Of a stretch of 64,000 nt of DNA, positions 25,105 to 57,738 are shown one piece after another; position 1 is the stretch's first letter, and the number at the start of each line of letters is the position of its first letter. Made by a program: the position numbers and the translations under genes. Origin of the DNA: Planctomycetota bacterium (GTDB lineage Bacteria; Planctomycetota; B15-G4); assembly GCA_965248575.1 (NCBI GenBank), contig CBDFJQ010000002.1:1367574-1431573 (forward strand), written 5' to 3'. A model generated the notes under the pieces. That model was not told the origin of the DNA, did no database searches, and was given only the letters and a program-made list of their open reading frames with translations.

Positions 25105-26304
25105 TCACGGGGTGCCGTGTGCTCCACCGGGGCCAGCTACTCTGCCGTCCGACGCCGGTGCTTCCCCATCGGTGGTGCTCTTGTTGCGGGGGTCCACGGG
25201 GCCTCCATGCTTCTCCATGGCGATGATCTTGCGGGTGACCGCGATCATGAACAGGAAGCCACCAGCGAAGATCAGGTAACGGTAGGGGGCGCTGGTCTGG
25301 CGCGCCAGGATCCCGAGGTACGCGATGATCAACGCCAGGCCCCACAGGATCACGACGGCCTCTGCGCTGCTGAACCCACCTCGCACCAAGCGATGGCTCA
25401 GGTGGTGGCAGTCACCCAGGTACACCGGCCGCTTCTCCTTGATCCGCATGAAGACCACGAAGGCCGCATCGAAGAGCGGAATGCCCATGAACAAGACGGC
25501 GGGGATCAGGTGGCTGGCGCCGAAGTCGTGACTGCCAACGCCCATGAAGCCCTTGACCAGGTCGAACTGCACCCACGCCATCCAGAACCCGATGAACATG
25601 CTGCCCGTGTCGCCCAGGAAGACCCGGCTGCGCGGAAAGTTGTAGGGCATGAAGCCCAGGACGGCGGCGAGCAGCACGACGGCCACGGTCATGGACCTGT
25701 AGCTGTCCGTGTTGGACATGTAGAGGATGGCCGCCGCGAAGGAGATGACCGACAGACCGGACATCAGACCGTTCATGTTGTCCGAGAAGTTGAAGCTGTT
25801 GACGATGGTCAGATACCAACCCAGGAAGAAGAGCTGGTAGAGCCATTGCTCTGGACTCCCGCCGCCTGAGATCAGGTCTCTCAAAGTCGGCAGCATGAGC
25901 ACGAGCACGCCCACGATCTGCCCCAACAGCTTGGGCTCGAAGCCCATGGAGTCCTTGAAGATGTCGTCAACCAGCCCGATCAGGAAGATGACGATGCTGC
26001 CCGCTATCACGAAGCTGATGACGGAGAAGCGTAGTCCTTCATCACCCAGCTGGGACTCGGATTGGGTCCAGACCACGGCCAGGCCCGCCATGACGCCGCA
26101 GACGACACCCAGCCCGCCCAGCAAGGGGGTCACCTTCTCGTGGGTCTTGCGGCCCCCAGGCTTGTCCACGATCCCAAAGCGCCGTGCCAGGACGAGGAAG
26201 AGCGGAACGGTGACAAGAGCCACCGCAAGAGCCGCGCCAAAGCCCAAGGCAGCAATCCGAAGAACGGGTTCGTCGAACAAGGAGGAGGTGTCCCGGAAGT
26301 CCAA
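25105..26304 (-). CDS. Polyprenyl-phosphate N-acetylhexosamine-1-phosphate transferase (GT4/MraY-WecA family; initiating transferase)
   Basis: 11-TM protein with WecA/MraY signatures: GIVDKPGGRKTHEKVTPLLGGLG, LIGLVDD, NSFNFSDNMNGL, VFLGDTGSMFIGF. 399 aa. Confidence 0.85.
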   Translation of the reverse strand: MDFRDTSSLFDEPVLRIAALGFGAALAVALVTVPLFLVLARRFGIVDKPGGRKTHEKVTPLLGGLGVVCGVMAGLAVVWTQSESQLGDEGLRFSVISFVIAGSIVIFLIGLVDDIFKDSMGFEPKLLGQIVGVLVLMLPTLRDLISGGGSPEQWLYQLFFLGWYLTIVNSFNFSDNMNGLMSGLSVISFAAAILYMSNTDSYRSMTVAVVLLAAVLGFMPYNFPRSRVFLGDTGSMFIGFWMAWVQFDLVKGFMGVGSHDFGASHLIPAVLFMGIPLFDAAFVVFMRIKEKRPVYLGDCHHLSHRLVRGGFSSAEAVVILWGLALIIAYLGILARQTSAPYRYLIFAGGFLFMIAVTRKIIAMEKHGGPVDPRNKSTTDGEAPASDGRVAGPGGAHGTP

Positions 26305-31176: not shown

Positions 31177-32634
31177 TCAGATCTCGGGGAAGTCGCTGGA
31201 CACGGGAGCCTGGGTCTTGCCCAGCTTGAACGCACGGGCCACGCGCGCCTTGCCCTCGTCATCCCAGTTCTCGATGTAGTAACGAATCCGGGCCCAGTAG
31301 CGCTTCGCGCGCGAGGGGAAGGAGTCGTACCAGGCCTCATAGTCTTCCACGAGGCTGCGCTTGATGCGGTTCAGCTCATCGTTGCTGAAGTTCTCATGCA
31401 TGTAGGGCGAGCGGTCCGAGTCCACGTATTCGGTGCGCACGAGTTCCGGGTCGATGCGGTCCGCGTATTGCTCAAAGGAGGCAGTGGCCGTGAGCGGATT
31501 GAACAAGGACGTGCGCACACGGTCCGGCATCGCCGCCCGGATCCCGCGTGCCGTCTCTTCGATGTCCTCCATGGTCTCGCCGGGCGTCCCGACGATCAGG
31601 AAGACCTTCGACCAGATGCCTGCGCGACGGGTCATCTTCAGGCACTCGACCACCTTCTCGGCCTTGTAGTCCTTGATCAGCGTGTCGAGGCTGCGCTGGC
31701 TCACGGATTCCACACCGAAGTACATCCGGTTGAAGCCGGCCTTCTTCATGGTGCGGGCCATGTCGTAGTCGATCATGTCCACGCGCGTCTCGCAGGACAT
31801 GTTCAACTTCAGGCCACGCTTCATGATCCCTTCGCAGAGGTCGTAGACGCGCTGCTTCTGGCAGGTGAACAGCTCGTCGATGAACAGCACGTTGCCCGGT
31901 TCGTAGGTGTCCGAGATCTCCTGCAGCTCGTCCAGGATGTTCTCGACCGAACGCGTGCGGAATCCACGGCCCGTCAACTCCTTCTGGCAGAACACACAGC
32001 GGAAGGGGCAGCCGCGACTGGTGAAGATGTAGAACAGCTTCTCCTTGTTCATCGCGGAGTAGCGCGGGAAGGGAAGCATCTCCCAGGCCGGGAACGGGAT
32101 GCGGTCCAGGTCCTTGATGAGCGGGGGCTGGGGGTTGGCGTGCCGCGTGCCGTCTGCCTTGTTGAAGGCGATACCGGGCACCGACTCCAGGGCATCGCGG
32201 CCCTGGTCGACACCGCGGGCGAAGTCGACGATGGAATCCTCGGCCTCACCACCGATGACATAGTCGATAGCGCTGCCGGCATCCAGGAAGGTGTCCACGT
32301 CGACGGTGGCGTGCGGGCCGCCCATGACGGTGATCACTTCGGGCCGCGCCTGCTTCGCCTTCTCGGCGTAGCGGATGGCACGGTTCACGTGCGGCGTGAG
32401 CGCTGACAAGCCCAGGATGTCTGCCTTGGAGATGTACTCATCCACCTCGGCGGCGGTGCAGACGCGCTCGTCGCAGCACTCCACGTCGCAACCCGCCTCA
32501 CGCAGGATGGCGGACAGGTAGATGATGCCCAAGGGCATGGCGATGAAGAAGTCGTCCTGCCCCGGAGGGGTGACATACATCAGGATGATCTTCTTCTTGG
32601 TGACGGGGGCGCTAGGCGCGTTGTCGCTCATCAA
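31177..32634 (-). CDS. Cobalamin-binding (class B) radical SAM enzyme
   Basis: B12-binding N-domain (KKIILMYVTPPGQD...PLGIIYLSAILREAGCDVECCD) and the radical SAM motif FTSRGCPFRCVFCQ. 485 aa. Confidence 0.85.
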   Translation of the reverse strand: MMSDNAPSAPVTKKKIILMYVTPPGQDDFFIAMPLGIIYLSAILREAGCDVECCDERVCTAAEVDEYISKADILGLSALTPHVNRAIRYAEKAKQARPEVITVMGGPHATVDVDTFLDAGSAIDYVIGGEAEDSIVDFARGVDQGRDALESVPGIAFNKADGTRHANPQPPLIKDLDRIPFPAWEMLPFPRYSAMNKEKLFYIFTSRGCPFRCVFCQKELTGRGFRTRSVENILDELQEISDTYEPGNVLFIDELFTCQKQRVYDLCEGIMKRGLKLNMSCETRVDMIDYDMARTMKKAGFNRMYFGVESVSQRSLDTLIKDYKAEKVVECLKMTRRAGIWSKVFLIVGTPGETMEDIEETARGIRAAMPDRVRTSLFNPLTATASFEQYADRIDPELVRTEYVDSDRSPYMHENFSNDELNRIKRSLVEDYEAWYDSFPSRAKRYWARIRYYIENWDDEGKARVARAFKLGKTQAPVSSDFPEI

Positions 32635-32651: not shown

Positions 32652-34100
32652 TCAGCCACGTCTGGGGACAGTCTGCTCTCGCGCCGGATCGTCAGGCGCC
32701 CCAGAGGCGTCTGCTGCACCGGCACTCCCCCCGGCCCTGGCCTTCATTCTGGCTGGAGCACGGCGAAAGTAGACGAATATGTATACCAGATGAAAAAGGA
32801 CAACGACCTGGCCGAAGCCCGCCGCCGCTGCAGCTCCCTTCGGCCCCCAGGCCGTCGTAGCTAAAAAGATCCCAACGGTCATCAGGGTGGAATACAGCAG
32901 GTTCTGGATCACGCAATGCCGCATGCGGTTCGCGTAGATGTAGAACGGCTCCACGATCACGGCGAAGCCGGTGAACAGATAGCCGGAGGCCAGCAACAGG
33001 TAGATCTCGAAGGATCCTGCGTATCGGCTGCCGTATCCGTAGGTGATGACCAGCCAGACGAAGGGGATCGAGAGCAGCGTCGCCCCGATGGCCAAGCCGC
33101 CTGCCGTCAGCGAAAGGCGCCGCAGCATGCCCCCCAGCTTGTCGATGGGAACATCCGACTGACCCATCTTCAGACCCAGGGTCGGCAAGATGTTCGTACC
33201 AATCGCTCCGATGGCCCCGCCCAGCACCATGGTCAGCACGCTGCCCACCTTGTAGACCCCGTTGTCCTCCATGCCCTCCACCGCCATGGCGTTGGCCGCG
33301 GCCACGGCGGGGATGAAGATCATGCCGAGCCGGGGCACCACGGCGGCCATGGACTTGCCGAGGGCCAGGAGGAAGGAGAGGCCAAAAAAAGTGGAAAGGG
33401 GAGCCTTGGGAATGGCCCGCAGCACCTTCCGGAAGGGTGGCGGCGCCAGATTGGGGTGCAGCTTGCGAGCCCAGCGATAGACGAACAGCCCGGCCACGCC
33501 CGACAGGATTCCATGGGCCACGAAGGCCCAGGCCGCCGAGGTGGGTGTCGCACTCACCCACAGAGCCCCCGAGACGAGGCCCACACGCAAGATGTTCGTG
33601 GCCATGTCAAAGGTGGCGTAGGTCCGCATCTGCCGCGTGCCGTTGAAGATCGCCAGCGTCAGGCTGCGCAGGATCTCCCCCACGACCGCCAGCGACAACA
33701 CCGCCGCCACCGCACCCACGTCGCGGTCGTCCAGGAACCTCTCGGCGAGCGCCGGCGCCGCGAACCAGGCCAGGAGCAAGACCCCCACGGACATCAGGGC
33801 GCCCAGCTTCAGCAGCGCCGCCAGCGCTTGGATGCTTCCCCCCTCGTCACTCAGCCCCTTCGCCTTGCTGTAACGGGACACGGCGGCGTTGGTGAGACCG
33901 AGGTTCACCAGGAAGAACAAGAACATGTAGAGCTCGCGCGATGTGGTCCATCGGCCGAACTCGTATTCGGACAACATGCGCGTCGTGATCAGCGACGTCA
34001 CGAGATAGGTCGCGCTCTGGACAAGGCTCGCGCCTTGCAAGACCAGCGTGTCACGTACGAACTTCTTCTGGCCGAAGGCCTTGATGCGATGACGGATCAC
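32652..34100 (-). CDS. Polysaccharide biosynthesis protein, Wzx-type oligosaccharide flippase (MOP/PST family)
   Basis: 482 aa, about 12-14 predicted TM helices. The N-terminus MIRHRIKAFGQKKFVRDTLVLQGASLVQSATYLVTSLITTRMLSEYEFG is typical of the PST family. Confidence 0.8.
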   Translation of the reverse strand: MIRHRIKAFGQKKFVRDTLVLQGASLVQSATYLVTSLITTRMLSEYEFGRWTTSRELYMFLFFLVNLGLTNAAVSRYSKAKGLSDEGGSIQALAALLKLGALMSVGVLLLAWFAAPALAERFLDDRDVGAVAAVLSLAVVGEILRSLTLAIFNGTRQMRTYATFDMATNILRVGLVSGALWVSATPTSAAWAFVAHGILSGVAGLFVYRWARKLHPNLAPPPFRKVLRAIPKAPLSTFFGLSFLLALGKSMAAVVPRLGMIFIPAVAAANAMAVEGMEDNGVYKVGSVLTMVLGGAIGAIGTNILPTLGLKMGQSDVPIDKLGGMLRRLSLTAGGLAIGATLLSIPFVWLVITYGYGSRYAGSFEIYLLLASGYLFTGFAVIVEPFYIYANRMRHCVIQNLLYSTLMTVGIFLATTAWGPKGAAAAAGFGQVVVLFHLVYIFVYFRRAPARMKARAGGSAGAADASGAPDDPAREQTVPRRG

Positions 34101-35329
34101 GAGCGGGCCCGCCTCCCGCGCACGGCGGCGAGTTCTGCGTAGATGTCCGCCACGCGGTTAGCAGCCCGCTCCCAGGTCTGGCCCTTGGCGCGCTCCAGGC
34201 CCGCGCGCCCCATGCTGCGTGCCCTCTCGTCGTTCTCCAGCAACAGACACAGGGCCTCGGCGAGTCCTGCCAGATCGTCGCGGCTGCGGAGGAAGCCGTT
34301 CTCCCCGTCGGTGATGGCGTCCTCGGCCCCGCTGTCCAGCACACCCACCACAGGCCGGCCGGCGGCGCCGGCCTCCAGGAACACGAGGCCGAAAGCTTCG
34401 AAGCCCCCTTCCTTGCTCGTCTGGGGAGTGAGCATGAAGGCCTGCGCTCCACGCATGAGGGCGACCTTGCGGCCCTCGGTCACATTCCCCAGGAAGTGCA
34501 CATGCTCCTGGGCCCCCGCCGCCTCGATCTGCGCCAGGAGGCCCTGGTAGTACGGGTCCTGCTCGGCGAAGCGCCCCACGATCACGAAGTGTGCCGACGG
34601 GCAACGCTCCCAGGCCTTGAGGAAGGCTGGCAGGGAGGTCTCATAGCCCTTGCGCTGCTTCACCTCGCCCACGCACAGGATGTACGGTTCGGGCACTTCG
34701 GGCGTCTCGCCGCGCGCGGCCAGCACGTCGTAATCGTCCGGCACGCAACCGTAGGGCACCACTTCCGCGTCGCCCGGGTCCACGACCCGCTCCACCTGGC
34801 GCAGGGCGAAGCGCGCACCCATCAGGAAGCGGTCGGCTCGCTTGTACATCCAGTTCAGGAGGTTCTGGTGAATGGGCATGGCGGCGGGAGTCACGGAGTA
34901 GGTGCCGTGACCGCTCACCACCACCGGGCGACCGGAGAGCACCCCGACGAGAACTGCCACGAAGCCCAGCGGGTAGTCGGACAGGCTGTGCACCACATCC
35001 GCGCGCCGCGCCGCGCGCACGAGCATGGGCAAGCTGCTGAACACCAACCACGCCAACTTGGGCAGGTTCAGGAAGGGGAAGTGGTTCATGGGCAACAGCG
35101 GATAGACCGTGACCCCCTTGCGCGGCATGTCGCTGGCGAAGCCCCGGTGCCCACGCCCGATGTACAGCTCGAGACCGGAACAACGCGGAATCAGGTAGCG
35201 CAGGGTCGACACGCTGTAGCGCCCCACGCCGTCCACCTCGGAAAGCGAATGGGTCAGCACCATGACCCGAGGCTTGGCTGCATCTCCGGTCCCGGTATCG
35301 ACGTTGGTCTCGAGCTCTGGCTTGCTCAT
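34097..35329 (-). CDS. Glycosyltransferase family 4
   Basis: ORF 34097..35374; start at MSKPELE (35329) or MVLTHSL (35263). C-terminal GT4 motif FMLTPQTSKEGGFEAFGLVFLEAGAAGRPVVGVLDSGAEDAITDGENGFL. Overlaps wzx by 4 nt. Confidence 0.8.
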   Translation of the reverse strand: MSKPELETNVDTGTGDAAKPRVMVLTHSLSEVDGVGRYSVSTLRYLIPRCSGLELYIGRGHRGFASDMPRKGVTVYPLLPMNHFPFLNLPKLAWLVFSSLPMLVRAARRADVVHSLSDYPLGFVAVLVGVLSGRPVVVSGHGTYSVTPAAMPIHQNLLNWMYKRADRFLMGARFALRQVERVVDPGDAEVVPYGCVPDDYDVLAARGETPEVPEPYILCVGEVKQRKGYETSLPAFLKAWERCPSAHFVIVGRFAEQDPYYQGLLAQIEAAGAQEHVHFLGNVTEGRKVALMRGAQAFMLTPQTSKEGGFEAFGLVFLEAGAAGRPVVGVLDSGAEDAITDGENGFLRSRDDLAGLAEALCLLLENDERARSMGRAGLERAKGQTWERAANRVADIYAELAAVRGRRARS

Positions 35330-37176
35330 CCGTCGCTCCCAGTCCCAGTGTCGAGTCGCCAGGCGCGGATCCAAGGACCCGGTCGCTCGTAGCTCCAGAG
35401 CTGCGTCAGGGCAAACTCCATGTCCGTCGGCAAGGCTGCTTCCCCGGGCGCCGACTGGCCCGTGGGCGAACGCTCGTACACGAGCGTGCCGTGCTGCGCC
35501 GTGAACTCGTCGATGGGCGCACGCGGCTCCGCCACGGGCGCACGGTCCACCCGCACGTAGACGTCAACACTCCACTCCTTCATCCAGGCGTCCAAAGACA
35601 TCTCGATGGGCGGCTTCCCGAACAGGAAGTCCGTCGGGTAGTAGCTGATGTACCGCCAGTAGCGCTGGATAGGCAACAGGTGTCGTGCGTGCAGAGGCGC
35701 TGGCACTCCAGCCTCGGCTTCGGCCACGGCGCGTTGCTCCTGTCGACCGAGCCAGACGGAGCCCGCCTGCGCATCCCCCACCGCGCGGCGCCCCTGATCT
35801 TCCAGCATGGCAACGAGTGTCTCGGCGCGCGGCGTCATGGGCGGACCGTATTGGGCACCGAGCCCATCAACGGCGGCGAGCTCTTCCGGACCGATGATTG
35901 CGAGCAACTCCTGGGACGCCAGCGAGCGTGTGTCCGTTCTCCCGAGCAAGGCGTCCAGACGAGCTGCCTGCACGATGGGGACCGCCAGCAATACGCAGGC
36001 CAGCACGCGCATGGCGCCTCCCCTGCGAGCCAGGGCCGTGAGCAGACGACCAGCACCCAGGGCCAGGAAGGGCACCGCCGTCATCATGTAGCGCACATGG
36101 CTGCCGTCGTAGACCAAGAACAGCGCGCAGGCCAGCAGGGCCGGAACGACCACCAGCAGCAGGCTCTCCCAGCGCGTCTGCCGACAGCGAGCCCAGAGCA
36201 GCAGACCCACCAGCCCGGCCAGCGCCAACACCGGGTCGTAGCCCAACCACGAGCGCAGCACGGTTCCGAAGCGCGCGCCCCCCAGCAGCCCCAGACTGAA
36301 GGCTTGTCCGCCCAGGTCCAGCACCTCGTCCCCGCCTTCCGCCAGGAGCTGGCTCTGGTCCGTCTGGAAACCGGCCCCACTGTCTGCGCCGTGCACCCAG
36401 CTGAACGGATAGCCGAGCGAGAGCAGGACCAGCCCCGCCGCCAGCACGCCGACAGCCAGCTGACCAAGCACCCGCACTCTCTTGCCCGGCTCCGCGCGCG
36501 CCGCGACACACAGCAGCCCCACACAGGGGACCGCCAGATAGAGCAGACCCACCTGGAAGCTCGCCCCGGCCAAGGCGCTGGCGCCGAAGGCGGCTAGCAC
36601 ATCCCGGACCCGACGCCGACGCTGCAGGCGCAGGGTCAACGCCAGACCCAAGGCCGCGAAACCCAGCATCGGCGCCCAGGGGCGAACGGTGTGTGCGAAC
36701 TGGACCACCATCAGGGATGAGCCCGCCAGCAGCGCCGCAACGGCTGCTTCGGCCTTGCTGCGTCTCAGCTCCCGGGCCGCCCGATAGACCCCCCAGGGCA
36801 GCAGCAGAGCCAAGAGCGCCGAGAGCACACGGCCGGGGAACCAGGCCAGCCCAGGGTCCTCGAAGATGGCTTCGGCGAAGGCGCCCGCCCCACCCCATTC
36901 GCCGCTCAGCTTGCCGACGGCAAAGCGCATCCCCAGAGCGCCGAGATTCAGATACGGCAAGAGGTAGGGATAGGTGGTGTAGACAGCGCCCTCGGGAACC
37001 AGCGCGCCCAGCCCGCCGCCGTCCGCTGCATCCCGGGCCATGCCCAACGCACAGCGCACCACCGTGTCGTCCGGCACATAGCGATGCGGCAAGCCATGGT
37101 CGAGCGACAAGCCCATCAAGACGGCCACCAAGACCATCACGGCGCGCAGGGGATGGTCTCGCCCCATAAGCATCAC
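35326..37176 (-). CDS. Polytopic membrane protein, putative GT-C-fold glycosyltransferase (ArnT/PMT-like) or polymerase/ligase-like component
   Basis: 616 aa. About 12 TM helices in the first 430 aa with an acidic PDD in the first loop, then a ~190-aa soluble C-terminal domain. Assignment is by architecture only. Confidence 0.4.
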   Translation of the reverse strand: MMLMGRDHPLRAVMVLVAVLMGLSLDHGLPHRYVPDDTVVRCALGMARDAADGGGLGALVPEGAVYTTYPYLLPYLNLGALGMRFAVGKLSGEWGGAGAFAEAIFEDPGLAWFPGRVLSALLALLLPWGVYRAARELRRSKAEAAVAALLAGSSLMVVQFAHTVRPWAPMLGFAALGLALTLRLQRRRRVRDVLAAFGASALAGASFQVGLLYLAVPCVGLLCVAARAEPGKRVRVLGQLAVGVLAAGLVLLSLGYPFSWVHGADSGAGFQTDQSQLLAEGGDEVLDLGGQAFSLGLLGGARFGTVLRSWLGYDPVLALAGLVGLLLWARCRQTRWESLLLVVVPALLACALFLVYDGSHVRYMMTAVPFLALGAGRLLTALARRGGAMRVLACVLLAVPIVQAARLDALLGRTDTRSLASQELLAIIGPEELAAVDGLGAQYGPPMTPRAETLVAMLEDQGRRAVGDAQAGSVWLGRQEQRAVAEAEAGVPAPLHARHLLPIQRYWRYISYYPTDFLFGKPPIEMSLDAWMKEWSVDVYVRVDRAPVAEPRAPIDEFTAQHGTLVYERSPTGQSAPGEAALPTDMEFALTQLWSYERPGPWIRAWRLDTGTGSDG

Positions 37177-38373
37177 TCAGTGAGCCCCCACCACGAGCTT
37201 CTCGCGCAGGAAGTTGGCCACGAGCCGGCCGCGCTCGGCCCAGTCGTAGGGCAGCACATCCTGTTCGGCCTGCAGTGCCAAGCGGGTGCGCAAGGCCTCG
37301 TCCTGGATCAAGGCGTCCAAGCCCTCGGCCATGGCCGTGGGGTCGTCGGGCGCCACGAGGTAGGCGTTGGCATCGTGCTGCAGCACCTCCCGCAGGGAGG
37401 GCAGGTCGGTGCCGAGGATGGCCCGACCGCTGGCCATGGCCTCGAACATCTTGAGCGGCGAGGTGTACTTGCGGCTGATGGTCTCGCGCGCGCTGTTGGG
37501 CAGGGCGATGACATCGCCGGCAGCTAGGTAGAAGGGCACGGCCTGATGCGGAACGCTGCCCGCGAGGATCACGCGCCCCGGCGCGTGTAGCGCTACCAGC
37601 TTCTCGATACGGGACAGGTTCGGCGCGTCGCCTCCGACCACCAGGAGTTGCGCCTGTGGCAGTTGGCCCATGGCCTGCACCAGGGTGTCCACTCCCTTCC
37701 ACTCGTAGAGCTGGCCCGCATACACCACGGTCGGGACATCGGCCCGCAGCGAGAGGTGCTGGCGTGCATCCTCGACACTGGGACGCGTGGCGAAGCGCGA
37801 CAGGTGCACCCCGTCACGCGCCACGAGGATCCGGCTGGACTCAAGGCCCTCGCGCTCCAGGTCCTGCTTCAGGCCGTCGCTGATGACCACCACGGCCCGC
37901 AGCGATTTGAGTGCCGCCACCACTCGTCGTAGACGCCCTCCTGCTTCGGGCAGGTTGTGGATCTCCGCCGCCACCCGGGCACGATCCCCCGCCCGCAAAC
38001 CACCCACCAGGATCTCCAAGGTGTAGTGATCGCGCACCAGGATGCCCGCGTCCCGCTCCACCGCCGCTCGCGCCAAGGCGCGCAACCCGAACGTGATGGA
38101 CTGCATCAGGAAGGGCACGCGCTGGGCCGAGGGCTTCACCATGTCGATGGTGTCGATGTTGGCGATGCGACAGACCTCGAAGTTGCGCCGCACGCCGTAG
38201 TGCGCCCAAGGGTCCACGGCGCGGTACGGGAAGCGGCGCGGCACCACCACATCCACCACCAGGCCCGTGTCCGCCAAGGCCTCGGCCATGGCCGCCACCT
38301 GGATGCCGTGCGCCCGCACGCCAGGGAAGCGCACGTTGACAATCAAGTCGAGACGGGTGAGGTCGCTGCTCAC
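37177..38373 (-). CDS. Glycosyltransferase family 4
   Basis: ORF 37177..38802, but the first 140 codons overlap the upstream gene. Likely GTG start (complement 38371-38373) overlapping the upstream stop (GTGA), giving VSSDLTRLDLIVNVRFPGVRAHGIQ.... C-terminal GT4 motif VIALPNSARETISRKYTSPLKMFEAMASGRAILGTDLPSLREV. Confidence 0.75.
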   Translation of the reverse strand: MSSDLTRLDLIVNVRFPGVRAHGIQVAAMAEALADTGLVVDVVVPRRFPYRAVDPWAHYGVRRNFEVCRIANIDTIDMVKPSAQRVPFLMQSITFGLRALARAAVERDAGILVRDHYTLEILVGGLRAGDRARVAAEIHNLPEAGGRLRRVVAALKSLRAVVVISDGLKQDLEREGLESSRILVARDGVHLSRFATRPSVEDARQHLSLRADVPTVVYAGQLYEWKGVDTLVQAMGQLPQAQLLVVGGDAPNLSRIEKLVALHAPGRVILAGSVPHQAVPFYLAAGDVIALPNSARETISRKYTSPLKMFEAMASGRAILGTDLPSLREVLQHDANAYLVAPDDPTAMAEGLDALIQDEALRTRLALQAEQDVLPYDWAERGRLVANFLREKLVVGAH

Positions 38374-40595
38374 GGTGAGTCGTCGCCTTCCGTGGGAGAG
38401 CTTCCGGCCGGCTCCTCGGGAGCCTGGCCGTTGAAGCCCGGCGGCCACTGGAACGGTCGGCGATAGAGATCCTCTTCGAGGATCTCGTTGGACCCCGTCA
38501 GCTGCCCGAGGTCGCCAGCCTGCAACAGCTTGAGCGCCTCCGCGCTGCCGGCCATGGCCGCGGCCTTCGCGTCTTCCGGCATGTCGCCTGCATAACCGAG
38601 CGCCACCAGACTCTTCATCTGGTTCAGCAGCGCCTGCTCGTCGCCCACCCCGGCCGACATGGGCACTTCCGGCATGGCGGCGTCGTGCAGTTTGTAACGG
38701 GCTGCGATCGCCGCGAAGGCCTGCGCGTAGGCCGGGTCGTTCAAGTCCAGGGGACTGTGCTCGCCGGGGTCGTCGATGAGATCGAACAAGCGCGTCGTCC
38801 ACTGCGCACCCTGCGCCTTGCTCAACGGTGCGAAGCGGCTCTGGGTGAGCTTGTAGCGTTCGTTGCGCATGGAGACGTAGCGCACGTTCTCTGCCACGAC
38901 GTGTCGCTCGTCTTCTCCGGGGTCGACGCCTGCAGCATCGGGCGCGAGGCTGCGCCCCGGTGACGGTCCTCCCGCGACCGCCAGGGTTCCGACACCCGCC
39001 ACGTCGAGCACCGTCGCGGGCAGGTCACGCATCTCCACCGGCCAGGTCACACGCGCCCCACCGTGTTGCTTGCCGGGGAAGCGCACGACCATCGGCACCT
39101 GCAGGTTGGTCTCGAACATCCAATCGTGTTCGAACAGGCCGTGGTCGTATAGCTCTTCACCGTGGTCCGAAGTGAAGATCACCAGGGTGTTCTCGTCGAT
39201 CTCCAGCTCGGCCAGCAGATCGAGCAGGCTGCCGAACATCTCGTCGGCAAAGCTCACGCCACCGTCGTAGAGCGCATTGACGTGTTCCACATCGCGGCCT
39301 GGGTCAAAATGCTCACAGCTCCAGGTCTGCTGACTGTCGTGTTCGCAAACGCCCTGCTGCTGCTGCTTCATGATCCACTGCCCGTGCTTCTGCCGGAAGG
39401 GGTGGAAGTAGCCCCCGTACTCAGGGTCGTAGCGACCGTCGTAGGGCGCCGGCGGCTCATAGGGTGTGTGCGTGCTGTAGTAGTGGACCAGCGCAAAGAA
39501 CGGCCGGTCGGCGTGCTTGCGGATCCAGCCCAGGGCCTCGGTGTTCACGAGCCGCGGGTCCATGGCCTGGCGCGTCTTGTTGTAGAGGATCCAGAGCAGC
39601 ATGCGACTGCGCACCACCGACCACTTGCTGTGCCGGTTCACCGCTTCGTGCCCGACGATGGTCTCGAAGTAGGTGTCGAAGCCATGCAGCAGCCCGGTGT
39701 CGTTGGACAGGGTCCCCGTCAGGAAGGCCCCCGTGGCGTAGCCCTGCTCCTGAAGCGCCTGGGCCAGCGTGCGGTTGCTGTCCACATCCAGTTGCTGCCC
39801 GGGCCACATCTTGATCAGGCCATGCTCGCGCGGGTACTTGCCCGTGAGAAAGCTGCCGAAGGAGGTCCAGGTGAAGGGTGCCTGGGCCCACGCGGTCTCA
39901 TAGACCACACCCTGTTCCGCCATGCGGTCCACGTTGGGAGAGATGTCAGGCGTCTTCTCGTAGCCGTAGCACCCCAGCCGATCGGCACGCAGGGCATCCA
40001 CCACCACATAGAGGACGTTGGGTGCGCCCTCCGGAGCGCCGCCCCGCCCGGCGGTGAGACTGGCCTCGCGCGCCATGGCCCAACTTCCAGCGACCGCGAG
40101 CAACAGCGTCACGACCAAGGTCGTCACCCGGCCCGGCACCCTGACCAGCCCGCCCTCCCGCACCAACATGCGGGCACCCAGGGCTGCCACCACGACCCAC
40201 GCCAGCGTCAGAGCGAGTCGCTTCGGGTGGTGGAACGGCAGCCCCCACGAGAAGTCCCAGAGCTGCTTGGTGTGCCAGTACAGGTTTACGAAGAGAGCTG
40301 AGGCCACCATCAGTCGCGGGGCCAGGAGTTCGGCGCTGCCTGGCGCGGGAGCACGACGCCTCAACCGACTCAGCATGATCACGGCCAGCGTGCAGCCGAG
40401 GGCACCGAGGACCCCGTAGTGCGCGGCCCCCAGGATCAGCGTCGCGGCAAGGTCCACCCCATCGAGGGGCGGCACATCACCCAGGCGCCCCCAGAAGCTC
40501 ATCCAGGGCCCCATGCGCACCACCAGGGCTTCGAGCAATCCCCACACAGCGCCCCACACGAGCCCAGAGGCCAGGGCTTGGCGCAGCTGATTCAC
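38370..40595 (-). CDS. Membrane-anchored alkaline-phosphatase-superfamily enzyme (sulfatase / phospho-substituent transferase-like)
   Basis: 741 aa. Five N-terminal TM helices, then a catalytic domain with PNVLYVVVDALRADRLGCYG and FTSDHGEELYDHGLFEHD, which are metal-ligand motifs of the sulfatase/LtaS/EptA superfamily. Confidence 0.75.
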   Translation of the reverse strand: MNQLRQALASGLVWGAVWGLLEALVVRMGPWMSFWGRLGDVPPLDGVDLAATLILGAAHYGVLGALGCTLAVIMLSRLRRRAPAPGSAELLAPRLMVASALFVNLYWHTKQLWDFSWGLPFHHPKRLALTLAWVVVAALGARMLVREGGLVRVPGRVTTLVVTLLLAVAGSWAMAREASLTAGRGGAPEGAPNVLYVVVDALRADRLGCYGYEKTPDISPNVDRMAEQGVVYETAWAQAPFTWTSFGSFLTGKYPREHGLIKMWPGQQLDVDSNRTLAQALQEQGYATGAFLTGTLSNDTGLLHGFDTYFETIVGHEAVNRHSKWSVVRSRMLLWILYNKTRQAMDPRLVNTEALGWIRKHADRPFFALVHYYSTHTPYEPPAPYDGRYDPEYGGYFHPFRQKHGQWIMKQQQQGVCEHDSQQTWSCEHFDPGRDVEHVNALYDGGVSFADEMFGSLLDLLAELEIDENTLVIFTSDHGEELYDHGLFEHDWMFETNLQVPMVVRFPGKQHGGARVTWPVEMRDLPATVLDVAGVGTLAVAGGPSPGRSLAPDAAGVDPGEDERHVVAENVRYVSMRNERYKLTQSRFAPLSKAQGAQWTTRLFDLIDDPGEHSPLDLNDPAYAQAFAAIAARYKLHDAAMPEVPMSAGVGDEQALLNQMKSLVALGYAGDMPEDAKAAAMAGSAEALKLLQAGDLGQLTGSNEILEEDLYRRPFQWPPGFNGQAPEEPAGSSPTEGDDSP

Positions 40596-40698
40596 AGGTC
40601 ACTCCAGGGGGAACCGATCGCGCATCGTAGATCCTTGGGCGGGGCCAGACTACGGCGCGCTAGAGAGCAGCTCCTCTCGACTGATAACCTCCCCCAGC
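40596..40698. promoter_or_regulatory. Divergent promoter region between the two AP-superfamily genes
   Basis: 103-nt gap between a minus-strand operon start (40595) and a plus-strand gene start (40699). Confidence 0.35.
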
Positions 40699-43600
40699 AT
40701 GAGTGAGGGGCACGACCGACATATGCGCCGCAACAGCATGCCGTTGCTCCTGTCCATCACGGGGCTGGTGTCCGCTCTGGTCTGGCCAGGGAGCGTGCTG
40801 GCCTGGCTGCCTCTGCTGCTCTGCCCGGGCTGGGGTCTGGCCAGGCTCGTCTCCGTCATCGACCGGAACTTTGGAGTTCTCGGTTCTGCCCTGTGCCTCT
40901 CCCCGCTCGTCCTGGGCTCCCTGACCCTCGTGAGTGCTGCCGCGGGCTGGCCGTCCGACCGGCTGGCCCTGGCCGTCCACATCACGTCGGTGGGCCTGTG
41001 CCTGCTGGGCCGCATCCGGCTCGCCGTCTACGACCGCTGGCTGGGGCGCCAACCTCCCATCGACGGGCCCATGCCCTGGTGGCCGGAGAAGCTCTGGGTC
41101 TGCGTGACGATCGTCGTGGTTGCCGTCGCCGCCGGAGCCGAGGTGGTCCCCCTGGACGAGGCTGCGGCCGGATCTCCCCGGCTCGTGGTGGCCAGCGAGG
41201 CGTTGGCCTGGCTGCAGGGCGCCGAGGATCCCATGCACGCCGGCCGGCCCTTGCCCATGGGCTCGCTCCTTTCCGGCGCCTCTGCGGCCCTGGCGGCGGG
41301 TGCCGGCTTGCACCCGCTGGAGTCCACGCAGTTGCTCTCGTGGTCAGCCCTCGTGGCCTGCCTGGTCCTGGCGGCGGAGAGCATCTCGCGACTTTGGGGC
41401 AATCGGGGCGCGGTGCTTGCGATGGCGGCAGTTCTGTTGGGGCTGAACCCGTTGGCCCTCGCCTTCCTGTTGGGCTCCGACGGTGTGCGCATCGACTCGC
41501 AACACCTCACCGCGGACTTCTCCCCCCAGCTCACCACGGCTATCGCTCCCTTCCTGGACGCAGCACCGCTGGCGCTGGCCCTGGCCTTCACGGCCATGCT
41601 GCTCTCGTCGACCCTCTCGATCCTTCGGCGCTCCAGCTATCACGTGCCACGACTCGCTGGCCTGGCAACCCTGGGCCTCGTGCTGACGGACGCCCGCGCG
41701 GCGCTGCTGCTGCTGCCCGGTTGGTTCGCTGGCCTGGCCCTCGCGCACCTCGCGTGCCGGGACAGCAAGGACAACGACCCGCAGCTCAACTCCAGTGTGC
41801 GCCGCCCGGGCGAACCGCTCATCCTCCGGGCTCCCTTCTGGAGACCCGCGCTGCACATCGCGTTGGGCGCGGCCGTGGGTTTCGCGCTCGTGGACCTCCC
41901 GACCTACGACGTGCAGCTTTCGCGCGTCGTGGTCTGGGGCTTGGTGGCCGCCGTGGGCCCGGGCTGCATCCTGTTCATGCCTGGGATTCGCCACCTGAAC
42001 GCCAGCCCAGGGCGCGAGGCGTACTTCTTCCTGCCCGCGGTGGCGGTCGCCGCGCTGTTGGGGATGACGGTGCAGTTCGATGGCGACCAAGGCAATCTGG
42101 TGGTGCGCTTGCTGGCCCTCGTACTCGCCGTCCCCGCGGCCAACGGCGCCATGAAGGTCATCGAGCTGCACGGCCTGCGCGCCACACTGCTGTTGATCTT
42201 CCTGACCTTGATCACGCTGCCTGGTCCGCTCGTCGTCCTCCGTGAAGCTCGCGACACAGCGCGACCGCTGCACTGCGTGGACCACGACTCGGTGCGCTGG
42301 GCCGAGTTGGATGAGGGCATCGCCAGTGCCCTCGCCCTGGTTCACGAGCGCAGCACCCAGGACGCCGTGCTGATCCTGGACGAGCTCCCGGACGCCCACG
42401 ACTTGTACGCGCTGTATCTCTTGTCAGGGCGTCCACTGGTGACCATCCCGAAGTCCACCCTGCTCGACAGCAGCAACGCCTATCAGCGTCAACCCGAGAC
42501 ACTCTCCCGCCCCGAGCGCACAGGCTCCCGGCGCGATCTCGTGAGCCGCCTCTCCCACGGTGATGGAACGGCACTCGCCCGCCTGCGCGGCAGTCGCGGC
42601 CTGCAGGGGCGGGAGATGTGGGCTGTGCACGAAGGGGACAGCTGGCCCGGCTTCCACCCCCAGCGCCAGGCCAGTGCATTGTTGGTGGAGCGCGCCGAAC
42701 TGCCGGACATCGTGCTCGTCACCATCTCGAGCCTGCGTGTGGACCGGGTCAACGCGGACTCCATGCCGGCCCTCGATGCCCGCAGCAAACAAGGCCTGCT
42801 GTTCGAGACAGCCATCACGCCAACGCCCAGCACGGGGCCGGGGCTCGCCAGCTTGCTTTCCGGCCTCTCCCCCGTGGAGCACGATGTGCGCGACGACGGC
42901 CGGCGCCTCTCCGCGGACATCCCAGGCTTGCAGCGACAACTCGCACTACGGGGTTACCGCTCCTCCGCCGTGGTCGCCCTGGGGTCCGACTCCGGATTGC
43001 TCAGGGGCTTTGAACAGGTGCGCGCTGAGTCGACTCTCGATGCGGAGCATTTGGTGGACCTAGCCACTCAACAACTGAGCCTGGCCGACCCCCGCCCTGT
43101 GTTTCTCTGGGTGCACTTCTCGGACCTGGAGCTGCCCTTCGAGGTTCCAGAGCACGCTCGCACGGCAATCACCGGTCCACACGACTTCCCCGACAGCTCG
43201 AATCTCGACGCGACGCGCTACGGCGTCGCTCCCTTTCCTCCCTCGGCGAATCACAGGGGAGAGGTGGATCTCAAGACGGGCGTGGCGCAATACGACGCCT
43301 TGGTGGGCATGGTCGACCGGGAGTTGGGCCGCCTGCTGCAGTCCATTCCGGAAGACGACCTGCTCGCGGTCACGGCCCCCCACGGCACCAGCCTGTCCGA
43401 GCACGGCGCCTACTTCATGCACGGCCCCGACCTCTTCGAACCGTCCATCCATGTTCCGCTGATCGTCGTCGGCGGTGGCATGCCCGTCAGTCGCAGCGGC
43501 AGCCTCACGAGCCTCGAGGACATTCCCGACCTGTTGCTCATGGGCCGGCTCCCTGTTCGCGAACGGGTGATGCTCGAAAGCGCGTGGCGCCCCGGTCTGG

Positions 43601-43857
43601 GCACCGGCGCCGCCTATCCGGCGGACATCGACCCGACGGCACGCGGAGCGGCGCGGCGCATCTGGGGCGAGCGTTCGGCCACCGGCAAGACCTTGTTGAC
43701 GATCAAACCGGATGCCGGTCAAGGCGCGCGCGGGCTCCGCTTTGATCTTGCGGCTGATCCGGATGAACTCCACGGCCAGGCGGCTGACCCCTTCGCCTTG
43801 CGACGGGTGGACACCTGGCGCAGACGCGGCCGACCGGCGAGCGTTGATCTGCCGTAG
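40699..43857 (+). CDS. Large polytopic membrane protein with a C-terminal alkaline-phosphatase-superfamily (sulfatase-like) domain
   Basis: 1052 aa. The N-terminal ~560 aa hold many TM helices (Wzy/O-antigen-ligase-like hydrophobic profile). The C-terminal domain begins PDIVLVTISSLRVDRVN...GLASLLSGLSP and contains APHGTSLSEHGAYFMHGPDLFE, both AP-superfamily-like. The exact start (40699, 40723 or 40738) is uncertain. Confidence 0.6.
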   Translation: MSEGHDRHMRRNSMPLLLSITGLVSALVWPGSVLAWLPLLLCPGWGLARLVSVIDRNFGVLGSALCLSPLVLGSLTLVSAAAGWPSDRLALAVHITSVGLCLLGRIRLAVYDRWLGRQPPIDGPMPWWPEKLWVCVTIVVVAVAAGAEVVPLDEAAAGSPRLVVASEALAWLQGAEDPMHAGRPLPMGSLLSGASAALAAGAGLHPLESTQLLSWSALVACLVLAAESISRLWGNRGAVLAMAAVLLGLNPLALAFLLGSDGVRIDSQHLTADFSPQLTTAIAPFLDAAPLALALAFTAMLLSSTLSILRRSSYHVPRLAGLATLGLVLTDARAALLLLPGWFAGLALAHLACRDSKDNDPQLNSSVRRPGEPLILRAPFWRPALHIALGAAVGFALVDLPTYDVQLSRVVVWGLVAAVGPGCILFMPGIRHLNASPGREAYFFLPAVAVAALLGMTVQFDGDQGNLVVRLLALVLAVPAANGAMKVIELHGLRATLLLIFLTLITLPGPLVVLREARDTARPLHCVDHDSVRWAELDEGIASALALVHERSTQDAVLILDELPDAHDLYALYLLSGRPLVTIPKSTLLDSSNAYQRQPETLSRPERTGSRRDLVSRLSHGDGTALARLRGSRGLQGREMWAVHEGDSWPGFHPQRQASALLVERAELPDIVLVTISSLRVDRVNADSMPALDARSKQGLLFETAITPTPSTGPGLASLLSGLSPVEHDVRDDGRRLSADIPGLQRQLALRGYRSSAVVALGSDSGLLRGFEQVRAESTLDAEHLVDLATQQLSLADPRPVFLWVHFSDLELPFEVPEHARTAITGPHDFPDSSNLDATRYGVAPFPPSANHRGEVDLKTGVAQYDALVGMVDRELGRLLQSIPEDDLLAVTAPHGTSLSEHGAYFMHGPDLFEPSIHVPLIVVGGGMPVSRSGSLTSLEDIPDLLLMGRLPVRERVMLESAWRPGLGTGAAYPADIDPTARGAARRIWGERSATGKTLLTIKPDAGQGARGLRFDLAADPDELHGQAADPFALRRVDTWRRRGRPASVDLP

Positions 43858-43998: not shown

Positions 43999-45891
43999 TC
44001 AGGCTTCGGTCCAGGTCTTCTTCCAGCTGCCTTGGACGGTCAGGGTGACGGGAGTGCCGGCGGCGCGTAGCTCCACCAGGTGGCCCCGTTTCGTGAGGTC
44101 GGCGCCATCGGCCTGGACGTCCACGTCCTGGAGTGCGACCGGGAGTTGGTAGCGCGCGAGGCCGTGGACATTCTCCAACCTCAAGACGTCCGTCAGGCGC
44201 ACGCGATCCTCTTCGAACGTGTAGTGGCGTTCCGTGCCGGTGCCGGGGACCCGCTGGCCCCGACCATCCGCCAGCGCCCCTTTGAAGGTGACGGACTGGC
44301 CGTCGAACTCATGCTCGGTCTGGATGTCCTGGTGCGCGGCGCACCAGGGGCTCGACTCCTGCACGCTGCGCACGAGGACGTGCCGCCAGGGGTAGGCCAG
44401 GCCGCGCAGCAGACCGTGGCGCGCCTTCAGTTCGATGCTGGTGACGTAGAGTCGGAAGCGGACGTCGCTCTTCTCTGCCTTCAGCCAGCGCACCCAGCGT
44501 GCGGTACGGGACCCAGCTTTCGACGGGCGCAGGAGAAAGCTCCCGGGTCGCTCACGCTGGAAGCGCACGCGCGGCACGTCTTCCCGGCCTGGTGTGCGAC
44601 CGTCGCTGGCCCATACCAGGGACTGCAGGCTTCCGCCGCCCAGGTCGCACCCGAACAGGTTGCTTGCCCCCAGGCTCTTGCCACGCAAGATTGCGGTGTA
44701 GGCGATGCGCTCCACGTGCAGCAGGCCCGAGTGCGCCAGGTCGATCGTCATGGGTTCGCGCGGGGCAGCGCGCAAGGACACATCGGACAGGACCCTCGCC
44801 GCCCAGGCGGCGTGCCCCGTCCAGAAGATGCGGCACTGGAAGTTCACACCGGCGCCGTGATGGCTGTCTGCGCCTCCGTCCAGGGGATCGATGTGGGCGA
44901 CCCACTCCTCCATGGCGCGACCGGCTTCATTGGCGAACATCGGTTCGTTCAACACCCGAGAGCCCGTCTGCAGCGCGTACGCGTCAAAGGGGTGGCTGGC
45001 GACTTCGTAGGCGCTGACCCAGTACCAGGCCTTGGCCTCGTTGTGCAGGACCTTCCGACCGAGCCCATCCCGGAAGGCCACAAGCGCCCGCAAGCTGGTC
45101 GTCAAGCGCTCGCGAGCCCAGTCACTCAGGCTGGCATCCACACCCTCCATCCGCTCCAGCACCTCGTGCACATAGAGCACGAAGCCCGGCGTCCGGGAGT
45201 GGTAGAAGGTCGAGGTGTCTGCCAACCCTGGATGGGTGCAGTGGTCCGTGTGCGCAGGGATGTACGGGGCCACCCCGTCCGGGGCCAACTCAGCGAGGGC
45301 TGACGCACAGCCCGTGAGAGCATCTTGCGCCCAGTCCTTGCGCCCCAAGCAGCGCGCGGCGCGGGCCACGCCCGTGGCCGCCCACAGGCGCTGCGCGGTA
45401 ATAGGCCGCTCCCGAGCGGCATGCCTCAGATAACCCTCAACGTGTCGTTCCAAAGCATCCCGGCAGCGGGCCGTCTCGGATTCATTGAACAGCTCCGGCA
45501 CGTCCTCCAGCAGCGTGGCGATGGAGTCCGCGCACGCCCCGCCATCAATGGCATTGGTCGACGCGTTGCGGTGGTCAATGCGTCCCGGAAGGAAGACGGG
45601 CACCTTGCTCTGGGGGTCCAGACCCAGGTGATCCACGCTGCGGAGCACCTGGCGCTTGCCGCGCTCGAGGAACTCCTCCTCGCGCGTGTTGCGCCAGGCC
45701 TCGAGGTTGATCACCGCGCCATACGTCAGCTTCCCCGTGTGCTCCACCCGATGGCGCGGGCACAGGCATTCGCCGTCGGGGCCCGTGTACTTCTCGAAGA
45801 AGTTGGACAGGCCCCGCAGGATCCCCAAGCGCAGTTGCACGTGATTCTTCATGCGCGTCTTGCCGCTACCAGGCGCAGGAGAAAGGCTCAC
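43999..45891 (-). CDS. Hypothetical 630-aa protein (Cys/His/Trp-rich; possible polysaccharide lyase/hydrolase-like accessory enzyme)
   Basis: Long ORF with good GC3 bias, translationally coupled to the upstream GT4 (ATGA overlap at 45888-45891). No motif I can assign with confidence. Confidence 0.5.
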   Translation of the reverse strand: MSLSPAPGSGKTRMKNHVQLRLGILRGLSNFFEKYTGPDGECLCPRHRVEHTGKLTYGAVINLEAWRNTREEEFLERGKRQVLRSVDHLGLDPQSKVPVFLPGRIDHRNASTNAIDGGACADSIATLLEDVPELFNESETARCRDALERHVEGYLRHAARERPITAQRLWAATGVARAARCLGRKDWAQDALTGCASALAELAPDGVAPYIPAHTDHCTHPGLADTSTFYHSRTPGFVLYVHEVLERMEGVDASLSDWARERLTTSLRALVAFRDGLGRKVLHNEAKAWYWVSAYEVASHPFDAYALQTGSRVLNEPMFANEAGRAMEEWVAHIDPLDGGADSHHGAGVNFQCRIFWTGHAAWAARVLSDVSLRAAPREPMTIDLAHSGLLHVERIAYTAILRGKSLGASNLFGCDLGGGSLQSLVWASDGRTPGREDVPRVRFQRERPGSFLLRPSKAGSRTARWVRWLKAEKSDVRFRLYVTSIELKARHGLLRGLAYPWRHVLVRSVQESSPWCAAHQDIQTEHEFDGQSVTFKGALADGRGQRVPGTGTERHYTFEEDRVRLTDVLRLENVHGLARYQLPVALQDVDVQADGADLTKRGHLVELRAAGTPVTLTVQGSWKKTWTEA

Positions 45892-57644: not shown

Positions 57645-57738
57645 GTTGCATTCGGCACCCCCGCTCCGGTCGGCGCCCCGCCCTAGTTGGCGAAGCCGTC
57701 ATCGGTGAGCCATGCCGTGCGAGGTAGACTCCCGAACG

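Follow-up and report, generated by a model that had tools for sequence, protein, structure and literature searches.

A divergent Planctomycetota gene pair for a threonine-type alkaline-phosphatase-superfamily enzyme and a candidate GT-C-like membrane protein with a degenerate sulfatase-fold domain

Introduction

Among the glycosyltransferases of subclass GT-C_A, written GT-C(A) below, PglB/STT3 (GT66) and ArnT (GT83) consist of a polytopic domain of about 13–15 helices with a periplasmic domain at its C-terminal end. The donors of most GT-C(A) families are lipid-phosphate-linked monosaccharides (Table 1 of PMC10920833). In the alkaline-phosphatase (AP) superfamily, EptA, MCR-1 and LptA carry a periplasmic AP-fold domain behind five transmembrane (TM) helices, and the zinc site of MCR-1 has been described as E246/T285/D465/H466 (PMC5031297). 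YejM (PbgA, LapC) also joins a membrane domain to a periplasmic AP domain; it is a regulator (PMC11025326), for which metalloenzyme activity has been claimed (PMC7576196). Here, we describe a divergent gene pair from a stretch of 64 kb (the window; contig CBDFJQ010000002.1 of assembly GCA_965248575.1) of a Planctomycetota bacterium. Its products, P1 and P2, were compared with these systems. Like PglB/STT3 and ArnT, P2 has a polytopic domain followed by a C-terminal domain that is predicted to be periplasmic.

The reading that we favour, with moderate confidence, is that P2 represents a new GT-C-like family whose periplasmic module is a pseudo-enzyme, and that P1, the active paralogue, has an optional role in decoration.

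The gene pair

P1 is the 741-residue product of 38370..40595 on the minus strand and P2 is the 1052-residue product of 40699..43857 on the plus strand. The two genes are separated by a divergent intergenic spacer of 103 nt (40596..40698). Neither a sigma-70-like promoter nor a terminator was found in the spacer by a scan that is uninformative for this phylum, and a divergent promoter is an assumption. The GC content at third codon positions is 0.85 for P1 and 0.84 for P2, a coding-type codon-position pattern in a window of 65% GC.

P1 was assigned from PF00884 and a 49-sequence alignment as a membrane-anchored, Thr-type enzyme of the AP superfamily on a sulfatase scaffold. Its N-terminal membrane domain (residues 1–175; 40071..40595, minus strand) was delimited by hydropathy and Lys plus Arg (K+R) counts, and its predicted periplasmic catalytic domain (residues 190–640; 38676..40028, minus strand) by alignment to sulfatases and by hhalign to EptA. 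P2 is a fusion protein, as judged from its open reading frame (ORF), 38 full-length homologues of 914–1093 residues and an AlphaFold model. It comprises a polytopic N-domain with a predicted GT-C(A)-like fold and no sequence relatives outside its own family (residues 1–519; 40699..42255), a poorly conserved linker with a small alpha-beta subdomain (residues 520–668; 42256..42702; DSSP of the model and column conservation) and a degenerate AP/sulfatase-fold domain (residues 669–1040; 42703..43818), all on the plus strand. Pfam assigned PF00884 (Sulfatase) to residues 192–535 of P1 (E = 2.3e-46) and residues 669–942 of P2 (E = 9.2e-14), and no family to the membrane part of either protein.

An initial annotation, made from the DNA alone, had described the divergent ORFs with their 103 nt spacer, and its coordinates, coding character and motifs (VVDALRADRLGCYG in P1 and TISSLRVDR in P2) were all recovered. 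Its view of both products as membrane-bound members of the AP/sulfatase superfamily in an envelope-glycan cluster agrees with the PF00884 matches and the predicted TM helices. The five TM helices given for P1 are reproduced by hydropathy and the positive-inside rule, and the 'about 14' given for P2 is a fair estimate for a protein with 13 or 15. The pattern goes well beyond chance, with 41 homologues of P2, more than 1,400 matches of P1 and synteny in nine of 13 related genomes.

The GT4 ORF next to P1 (37177–38802, minus strand) is over-extended at its 5' end, as its orthologues align from about residue 142, which places the start near 38379. Because a start at this position overlaps the stop codon of P1 by about 10 nt, translational coupling of P1 and the downstream GT4 gene is suggested.

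The C-terminal half of P2

The extent of the degenerate domain was established from the Pfam match, column counts, hhalign and structural matches. The homology of the P1 and P2 families extends across about 350 columns (26% identity; hhalign probability 99.5, E = 2e-23), and the alignment pairs D200, T242, D477 and H478 of P1 with S677, T712, P894 and H895 of P2, respectively. The columns were counted in 39 members of the P2 family. Position 677, that of the metal-binding Asp (codon 42727–42729, plus strand), is occupied by Ser in 20 members, Ala in ten, Glu in three and Asp in three. The nucleophile position 712 is Thr in 20 of the 39. Position 894, that of the Asp of the 'DH' motif (codon 43378–43380, plus strand), is Pro in every member, and position 895 is His in 26. 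The formylglycine motif C/S-x-P-x-R is missing as well, with T712-G-P-G-L in its place. Because of the column counts at 677, 712, 894 and 895, the core metal/nucleophile set of the AP superfamily is judged to be absent from this domain and not under selection. On this sequence evidence the sulfatase-like domain of P2 cannot be catalytic and is classed as a pseudo-enzyme.

Columns conserved to at least 90% make up 18% of the N-domain, 9% of the AP-like domain and 4% of the linker. In P1 the mean pairwise identity is 64% in the catalytic domain versus 42% in the membrane part. The conservation pattern of P2 is inverted relative to that of P1, and the membrane half of P2 is its conserved part.

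In searches of the PDB, the P2 family profile matched YejM/PbgA (E = 1.7e-11) as strongly as choline sulfatases. The P2 model superimposed on the periplasmic domain of YejM with TMt 0.70 and a root-mean-square deviation of 4.3 Å (Foldseek). When the full-length model was used as the query, only sulfatase-fold entries were matched. The nearest sequence from outside the family, P0042, is anchored in the membrane and has an intact SDHGE; its nucleophile motif reads T-G-P-S-H, which resembles the T-G-P-G-L of P2. The C-terminal domain of P2 was probably derived from a Thr-type enzyme of this kind.

The N-terminal half of P2

The AlphaFold model of full-length P2 has a mean predicted local distance difference test score (pLDDT) of 86.8 and a predicted template-modelling score (pTM) of 0.84. 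Residues 1–524 modelled alone gave a pLDDT of 89.1 and a pTM of 0.92. A Foldseek search of the PDB with this domain returned only GT-C(A) enzymes at probabilities of 0.89–1.0, with TM-scores of 0.29–0.48: PglB (3rce), AftA, ALG12, yeast and human STT3, DPY19, ALG9, ArnT (5f15/5ezm) and Pmt1/2. PglB was the best match (E = 3.3e-03, TMq 0.46), and the top match and four of the top nine are of the oligosaccharyltransferase (OST) type (GT66). The 50 best PDB matches contain no WaaL, SEDS or Wzy chain. In the published classification the families matched by the P2 N-domain make up GT-C_A, while O-antigen ligases, SEDS proteins and some polymerases fall into GT-C_B (PMC10920833). A transporter was considered and rejected: the remaining matches were all transporters, but with TM-scores of about 0.1 and probabilities below 0.2. 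A search of the viral structure library BFVD, used as a negative control, yielded background matches only.

Searches by sequence remained within the family. A profile built from 15 N-domain sequences and run against 1.84 billion representatives found 17 proteins, all members of the P2 family itself. The same 15 members gave no Pfam match at E ≤ 10, including Wzy_C (PF04932), and the PDB profile search gave nothing for this domain. The hhalign comparison with the neighbouring 616-residue PMT_2-like protein was not significant. The comparison with Escherichia coli ArnT returned only a short RAPFW match at a probability of 0.5%, which we treat as a lead and not as evidence. P2 is accordingly put forward as a candidate for a new GT-C-like family that is visible only by predicted structure.

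Stand-alone versions of the membrane domain that lack the AP-like half were found in P0169 and P0170 (541 residues) and as a 555-residue protein in locus L016 (9800–11467). Such proteins of 541–555 residues show that the N-domain does not need the AP-like half in order to function. That P2 might be an artefact of assembly or fusion was rejected, given that about 38 homologues share its architecture. A 675-residue ORF on the plus strand of L016 was examined as a possible split-off sulfatase domain and was also rejected, as it has no Pfam match and no similarity to P2. This ORF lies antisense to the orthologue of the 630-residue protein described below.

Residues 14–519 of P2 contain 15 hydrophobic helices, which correspond either to 15 TM helices or to 13 TM helices and two juxtamembrane helices. 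K+R-rich loops (1–13, 105–131, 229–237, 309–318, 354–380 and 430–440) alternate with K+R-poor loops (83–88, 150–205, 260–289, 398–408 and 458–465). From the positive-inside rule and the family alignment, the N-terminus is predicted to be cytoplasmic and the chain from residue 520 onward to be periplasmic. Loop 250–289 has a higher pLDDT when the C-terminal domain is present, which is consistent with a periplasmic C-terminal domain. PglB and ArnT have 13 TM helices.

The best candidate for a catalytic residue, as judged from the alignment, is D55 (codon 40861–40863). It lies in the motif C42-P-G-W-G..R49..S52..D55-R56-x-F58, of which D55-R56 is kept in 38 of the 39 sequences. D55-R56 lies at a distance from the N-terminus that we take to be typical of the catalytic Asp in external loop 1 (EL1) of GT-C enzymes.

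P1: active site and membrane part

In the HMMER alignments Thr242 of P1 occupies the formylglycine position, its T-W-T-S-F being aligned to S-T-P-A-R of 7oz8 and A-G-P-S-R of 4upi; the formylglycine motif C/S-x-P-x-R itself is absent from P1. The sulfatase G-K-M-H is aligned to G-T295-L-S297 (7oz8/4upi), and the Lys downstream of the sulfatase 'DHG' is aligned to H490. The sulfate-binding Arg, Lys and Lys are missing and the metal ligands D200, D477 and H478 are kept. Across 49 homologues, down to 35% identity, D200, T242, H376, H478 and H490 show no variation and D477 almost none. The corresponding codons on the minus strand are 39996–39998 (D200), 39870–39872 (T242), 39468–39470 (H376), 39162–39167 (D477-H478) and 39126–39128 (H490). 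The DH motif and downstream His of E. coli EptA were aligned by hhalign to SDHGE and H490 of P1 (probability 92.6), and H490 follows the DH by 12 residues, the same spacing as between H466 and H478 of MCR-1. Taken together, the invariant residues, this alignment and the MCR-1-like spacing point to an EptA-type residue constellation on a sulfatase-type scaffold, with a site of the phosphotransferase and not of the sulfatase type. By the same residues, P1 alone of the two is judged to be a catalytically competent AP-fold enzyme.

Five hydrophobic segments were found in P1 by hydropathy, which is also the modal count in the 49 homologues. Loops 76–91 and 146–156 are rich in Lys and Arg and are assigned to the cytoplasm; the K+R counts predict an N-in/C-out arrangement with a periplasmic catalytic domain. 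The membrane domain contains the invariant W107 within a conserved periplasmic loop motif, FxNLYW(W107)TKP...GLPFxHPxRL. From this conservation it is taken to exceed the needs of a simple anchor. The family also has a specific insertion at residues 311–345.

An alternative is that P1 is a hydrolase, such as a phosphodiesterase or phosphatase of the NPP or phosphonate monoester hydrolase (PMH) type, or else a sulfatase of an atypical kind, whose substrate would be the glycan or its lipid carrier. The closest sequences and structures of the catalytic domain are the arylsulfatase, choline-sulfatase and PehA models of NCBIfam and the sulfatase and PMH structures; P1 matches Phosphodiest (PF01663) with E = 9.5e-11, and hydrolases exist among the Thr-nucleophile AP enzymes. 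The missing formylglycine motif and sulfate-binding residues speak against a hydrolase, as does the alignment of H490 with the EptA His, and the conserved five-TM domain with its invariant Trp and periplasmic loop motif corresponds to the architecture of EptA/LtaS. We regard a hydrolase as rather unlikely. The transferase assignment is itself weakened by the position of P1 outside the EptA/LtaS families in both its membrane and catalytic domains, with a local match of only about 100 residues. P1 lies outside the NCBIfam EptA/CptA/MCR models (15–24 bits against cut-offs of 404–1250, over residues ~435–494 only), the EptA models giving 19–24 bits against cut-offs of 500–660.

Planctomycetota contain a large family of membrane-anchored 'sulfatases' of about 600–800 residues in which Thr replaces formylglycine (T-W-T-S-F or T-G-P-S-H), and these proteins are annotated as arylsulfatase A-like enzymes. 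Judged by this motif they are probably not sulfatases.

Distribution and synteny

A search of 5.8 billion clusters gave 41 homologues of P2, and 185,579 species genomes yielded 13 loci that contain it. The majority of these loci are labelled as Planctomycetota or Phycisphaerales metagenome-assembled genomes; one is labelled 'bacterium' and one Pseudohongiellaceae, the latter perhaps mis-binned. The glycan cluster that contains the pair is confined to a lineage of uncultured Planctomycetota. Public records name P2 a 'sulfatase-like hydrolase/transferase' or an 'arylsulfatase A-like enzyme'.

The gene order, compiled in a tblastn synteny table, is the same in all 13 loci, with the P2 gene always inverted and its N-domain always present. 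P1 is an accessory gene, because four of the 13 loci (L013–L016) lack it and have a GT4 gene directly opposite P2. L016 has no AP-like half of P2 at all, and in L010, L011 and L013–L015 this half has only 28–39% identity. The AP-like half is the least constrained part of P2 and tends to decay where P1 is missing, although phylogeny confounds this trend and L010 and L011 run counter to it.

The surrounding glycan cluster

The cluster spans about 29 kb (approximately 19.6–49.1 kb of the window), with a conserved core at approximately 25.1–49.1 kb. All genes are on the minus strand except P2 and a PcRGLX-like protein at the edge, so that P2 is the sole plus-strand gene of the core. The genes are, in order, a B12-radical SAM gene, the PcRGLX-like gene (1049 residues), a methyltransferase, a WecA/MraY-type initiator, a polysaccharide deacetylase, a GNAT protein, a 409-residue protein, a GT4, a second B12-radical SAM gene, Wzx, a GT4, a PMT_2-like GT-C protein (616 residues), a GT4, P1, P2, a 630-residue protein, two further GT4 genes and an epimerase. 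The GT4 enzymes number five or six.

The initiating enzyme (25105..26304, minus strand) is a polyprenyl-phosphate N-acetylhexosamine-1-phosphate transferase of the WecA/MraY type (PF00953, E = 1.3e-27), and the Wzx-type flippase (32652..34100, minus strand) matches Polysacc_synt (PF01943, E = 1.1e-14). The second GT-C-type membrane protein, which is PMT_2/ArnT-like (35326..37176, minus strand), matches PF13231 at E = 9.7e-06 with 26.3 bits against a cut-off of 26.1, and its orthologue in L002 is annotated PMT_2. The 630-residue protein (43999..45891, minus strand) is soluble, conserved and convergent with P2; it has no Pfam, NCBIfam or PDB match and was found in every related locus at 40–75% identity. 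A Wzy_C protein, an O-antigen ligase, a GT2 polyprenyl-phosphate-sugar synthase and Wza/Wzc were not found within the 64 kb window.

The two B12-binding radical SAM genes are on the minus strand at 31177–32634 and, at the cluster edge, at 19609–21033. The former is the most conserved member of the cluster, with 80–91% amino-acid identity over the 13 loci compared with 41–76% for most neighbours; C-methylation or another modification of the glycan is a possible role. The PcRGLX-like protein (21201–24350, plus strand) has weakly matching N-terminal and central domains of the rhamnogalacturonan-lyase type and could be a glycan-processing enzyme. Sets of Mla/Pqi-type lipid-transport genes flank the region outside the glycan cluster (MlaE-ABC-MlaD, 16334–19604, plus strand; PqiA-MlaD, 57712–59750, plus strand).

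Proposed function and alternatives

In the mechanism that we propose, the pair belongs to a Wzx-dependent cluster for a lipid-linked glycan, and P2 would be a periplasm-facing GT-C-type glycosyltransferase that acts on the Wzx-flipped, lipid-linked glycan. The donor would be the flipped undecaprenyl-diphosphate oligosaccharide, as for OST enzymes, which P2 may transfer or polymerise, either alone or with the neighbouring PMT_2-like GT-C protein. This donor is judged the most likely one from the lack of any Wzy, ligase or GT2 synthase in the window. By analogy, the inactive AP-fold domain most likely serves as a binding or docking module, for the acceptor glycan or for P1, in a place where other GT-C_A enzymes use different folds. 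In P1 the metal ligands D200, D477 and H478 and the nucleophile T242, together with His376 and His490, would form the active site. By way of a covalent phospho-Thr242 intermediate, a phospho-alcohol head group, for instance phosphoethanolamine or phosphoglycerol, may be taken from a phospholipid of the membrane and passed to the glycan, as in EptA/LtaS, in an accessory step. The analysis itself shows the domain identities, the conservation of residues, the predicted fold and the synteny; for the donor, the acceptor, the action of P1 as a transferase rather than a hydrolase and any contact between P1 and P2, we can only infer.

Several observations weigh against this reading of P2. The fold matches of the N-domain are statistically weak, none of them reaching E ≤ 0.001, and neither Pfam, hhalign nor the profile search links it by sequence to any GT-C family. 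Most of its invariant polar residues lie in predicted cytoplasmic loops, 105–131 among them, which is atypical for GT-C enzymes: others of these loops carry the motifs RLxGNxG (229–237), RRxSxHxPR (309–318), DN..RR..EP..RxPFW (354–381) and PGxR..SPGRE (428–440). The predicted periplasmic loops hold no invariant acid, E176 being found in 27 and D177 in 16 of 39 sequences. D55 would be periplasmic only in the 13-TM arrangement, with helices 33–51 and 57–82 as juxtamembrane helices of EL1. The absence of Wzy and GT2 genes holds for the 64 kb window only.

P2 could instead add a single side-chain sugar from a polyprenyl-monophosphate sugar, in the manner of ArnT, AftA or GtrC, with the polymerase or ligase and the GT2 synthase encoded elsewhere. 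Such donors are the commonest among the GT-C(A) families (PMC10920833), the fold matches include AftA, ALG12/9, DPY19 and ArnT, and there is a weak local resemblance of LRAPFW to HRAPFWYY of ArnT. However, the latter is the match at 0.5% hhalign probability mentioned above, neither the window nor the conserved part of the 13 loci yielded a GT2 synthase or a GtrA-like flippase, and the top fold match and four of the top nine are of the OST type. A side-chain sugar transferase is a credible but rather unlikely alternative. A more far-reaching version of our own proposal casts P2 as the polymerase or en-bloc transferase that is otherwise missing from this Wzx pathway without Wzy or WaaL, and thus as a second GT-C_A lineage besides the OSTs to use undecaprenyl-diphosphate oligosaccharides as donors, with the inactive domain docking P1 and coupling phospho-decoration to periplasmic transfer. 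We consider this version improbable as a whole.

It is also quite improbable, in our estimate, that the membrane domain of P2 is no glycosyltransferase but a scaffold, sensor or handler of the lipid carrier, with its functional face in the cytoplasm and a YejM-like sensor domain in the periplasm. The clustering of the invariant polar motifs in cytoplasmic loops and the weak E-values of the fold matches would fit such a protein, as would a C-terminal domain profile that matches the regulator YejM/PbgA as well as it does sulfatases. Against it stand a match list consisting consistently of GT-C(A) enzymes alone, at probabilities of 0.9–1.0, and the position of the gene among glycosyltransferase and flippase genes in every locus.

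The initial annotation had favoured a Wzy/O-antigen-ligase-type polymerase fused to an active AP-type domain by which the growing polymer would receive phospho- or sulfo-groups, which we regard as very improbable: a polytopic half is indeed joined to a PF00884 domain in a cluster with Wzx and no recognisable Wzy, but the metal-binding Asp and the Asp of DH are lost throughout the family (P894 being invariant), no more than 20 of 39 members retain the nucleophile, none of 15 members matched Wzy_C at E ≤ 10, and the fold matches include no WaaL, SEDS or Wzy chain. With two of the four core metal/nucleophile positions lost and an unconserved nucleophile, a loss that the annotation itself had named as counting against its view, the AP domain of P2 cannot be upheld as a decorating enzyme, nor can its membrane half as Wzy- or ligase-like, as it matches only GT-C(A) folds. 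The assignment to phospho-group transferases survives for P1, which is phosphotransferase-like and not sulfatase-like in its Thr, metal ligands and EptA-type His, and not for the degenerate domain of P2. At the nucleophile position that the annotation had singled out, Thr242 of P1 is invariant in the 49 homologues, while T712 of P2 is not. What stands of the unusual fusion is a membrane enzyme predicted to handle a lipid-linked glycan, tied to an AP-fold module and encoded beside an active AP-fold enzyme; what does not stand is a polymerase with an active decorating domain.

Under the GT-C-like reading, P2 would be an unusual case of a GT-C-like protein that has recruited an AP-fold pseudo-enzyme as its periplasmic module. 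The 'sulfatase' records for P2 are plausible mis-annotations, in which the conserved and probably functional part, the membrane domain, is unannotated. The large Thr-type family of Planctomycetota matters in this respect, as 'sulfatase' counts in planctomycetes are often read as a capacity to degrade sulfated polysaccharides. The conserved cluster is a defined target for the study of the envelope glycan of a poorly known Planctomycetota lineage. Literature searches returned no description of a GT-C/sulfatase fusion or of Thr-type S1-like enzymes.

Comparison with known systems

The locus resembles pgl-type clusters in combining an initiating phosphoglycosyl transferase, GT4 enzymes and a flippase, and PglB, ArnT and the Emb proteins carry a C-terminal periplasmic module, as proposed for P2. 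P2 has no detectable sequence similarity to PglB, STT3 or ArnT. It differs from PglB/STT3 in having an AP/sulfatase-fold pseudo-enzyme instead of a WWDYG-type periplasmic domain, and in lacking a long EL5. Unlike in the GT-C(A) enzymes, most of the residues conserved in P2 fall on the face predicted to be cytoplasmic, and its catalytic acid is only a candidate.

YejM/PbgA/LapC shares with P2 a membrane domain joined to a periplasmic AP domain without the full catalytic set, with regulation or ligand binding rather than bulk catalysis as its role. It differs in its five-TM domain, which is not GT-C-like, and in acting in the control of lipopolysaccharide and LpxC, and P2 is not matched by the NCBIfam LapC_YejM_PbgA model (NF038282).

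P1 has the five TM helices and periplasmic AP fold of EptA/MCR-1/LptA (and, by analogy, LtaS and OpgB), with the Thr nucleophile, the acid/Asp/His metal site and the His 12 residues after the DH. It differs from EptA in belonging to the arylsulfatase/choline-sulfatase/PMH branch, in aligning over about 100 residues and in its insertion at 311–345. The S1 sulfatases and PMHs (choline sulfatase 6g5z; PMH 4uph/2vqr) are the closest in sequence and fold to both AP-type domains. They differ from P1 and P2 in the C/S-x-P-x-R motif, which both lack, and P2 also lacks two metal ligands.

On the evidence of the models, the nearest functional parallel to P2 would be a GT-C_A enzyme whose AP domain is non-catalytic, as in YejM; P2 falls into none of the sequence-defined families tested. 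P1, as judged from its residues, would work most like EptA/LtaS, yet by sequence it belongs to the sulfatase/PMH branch.

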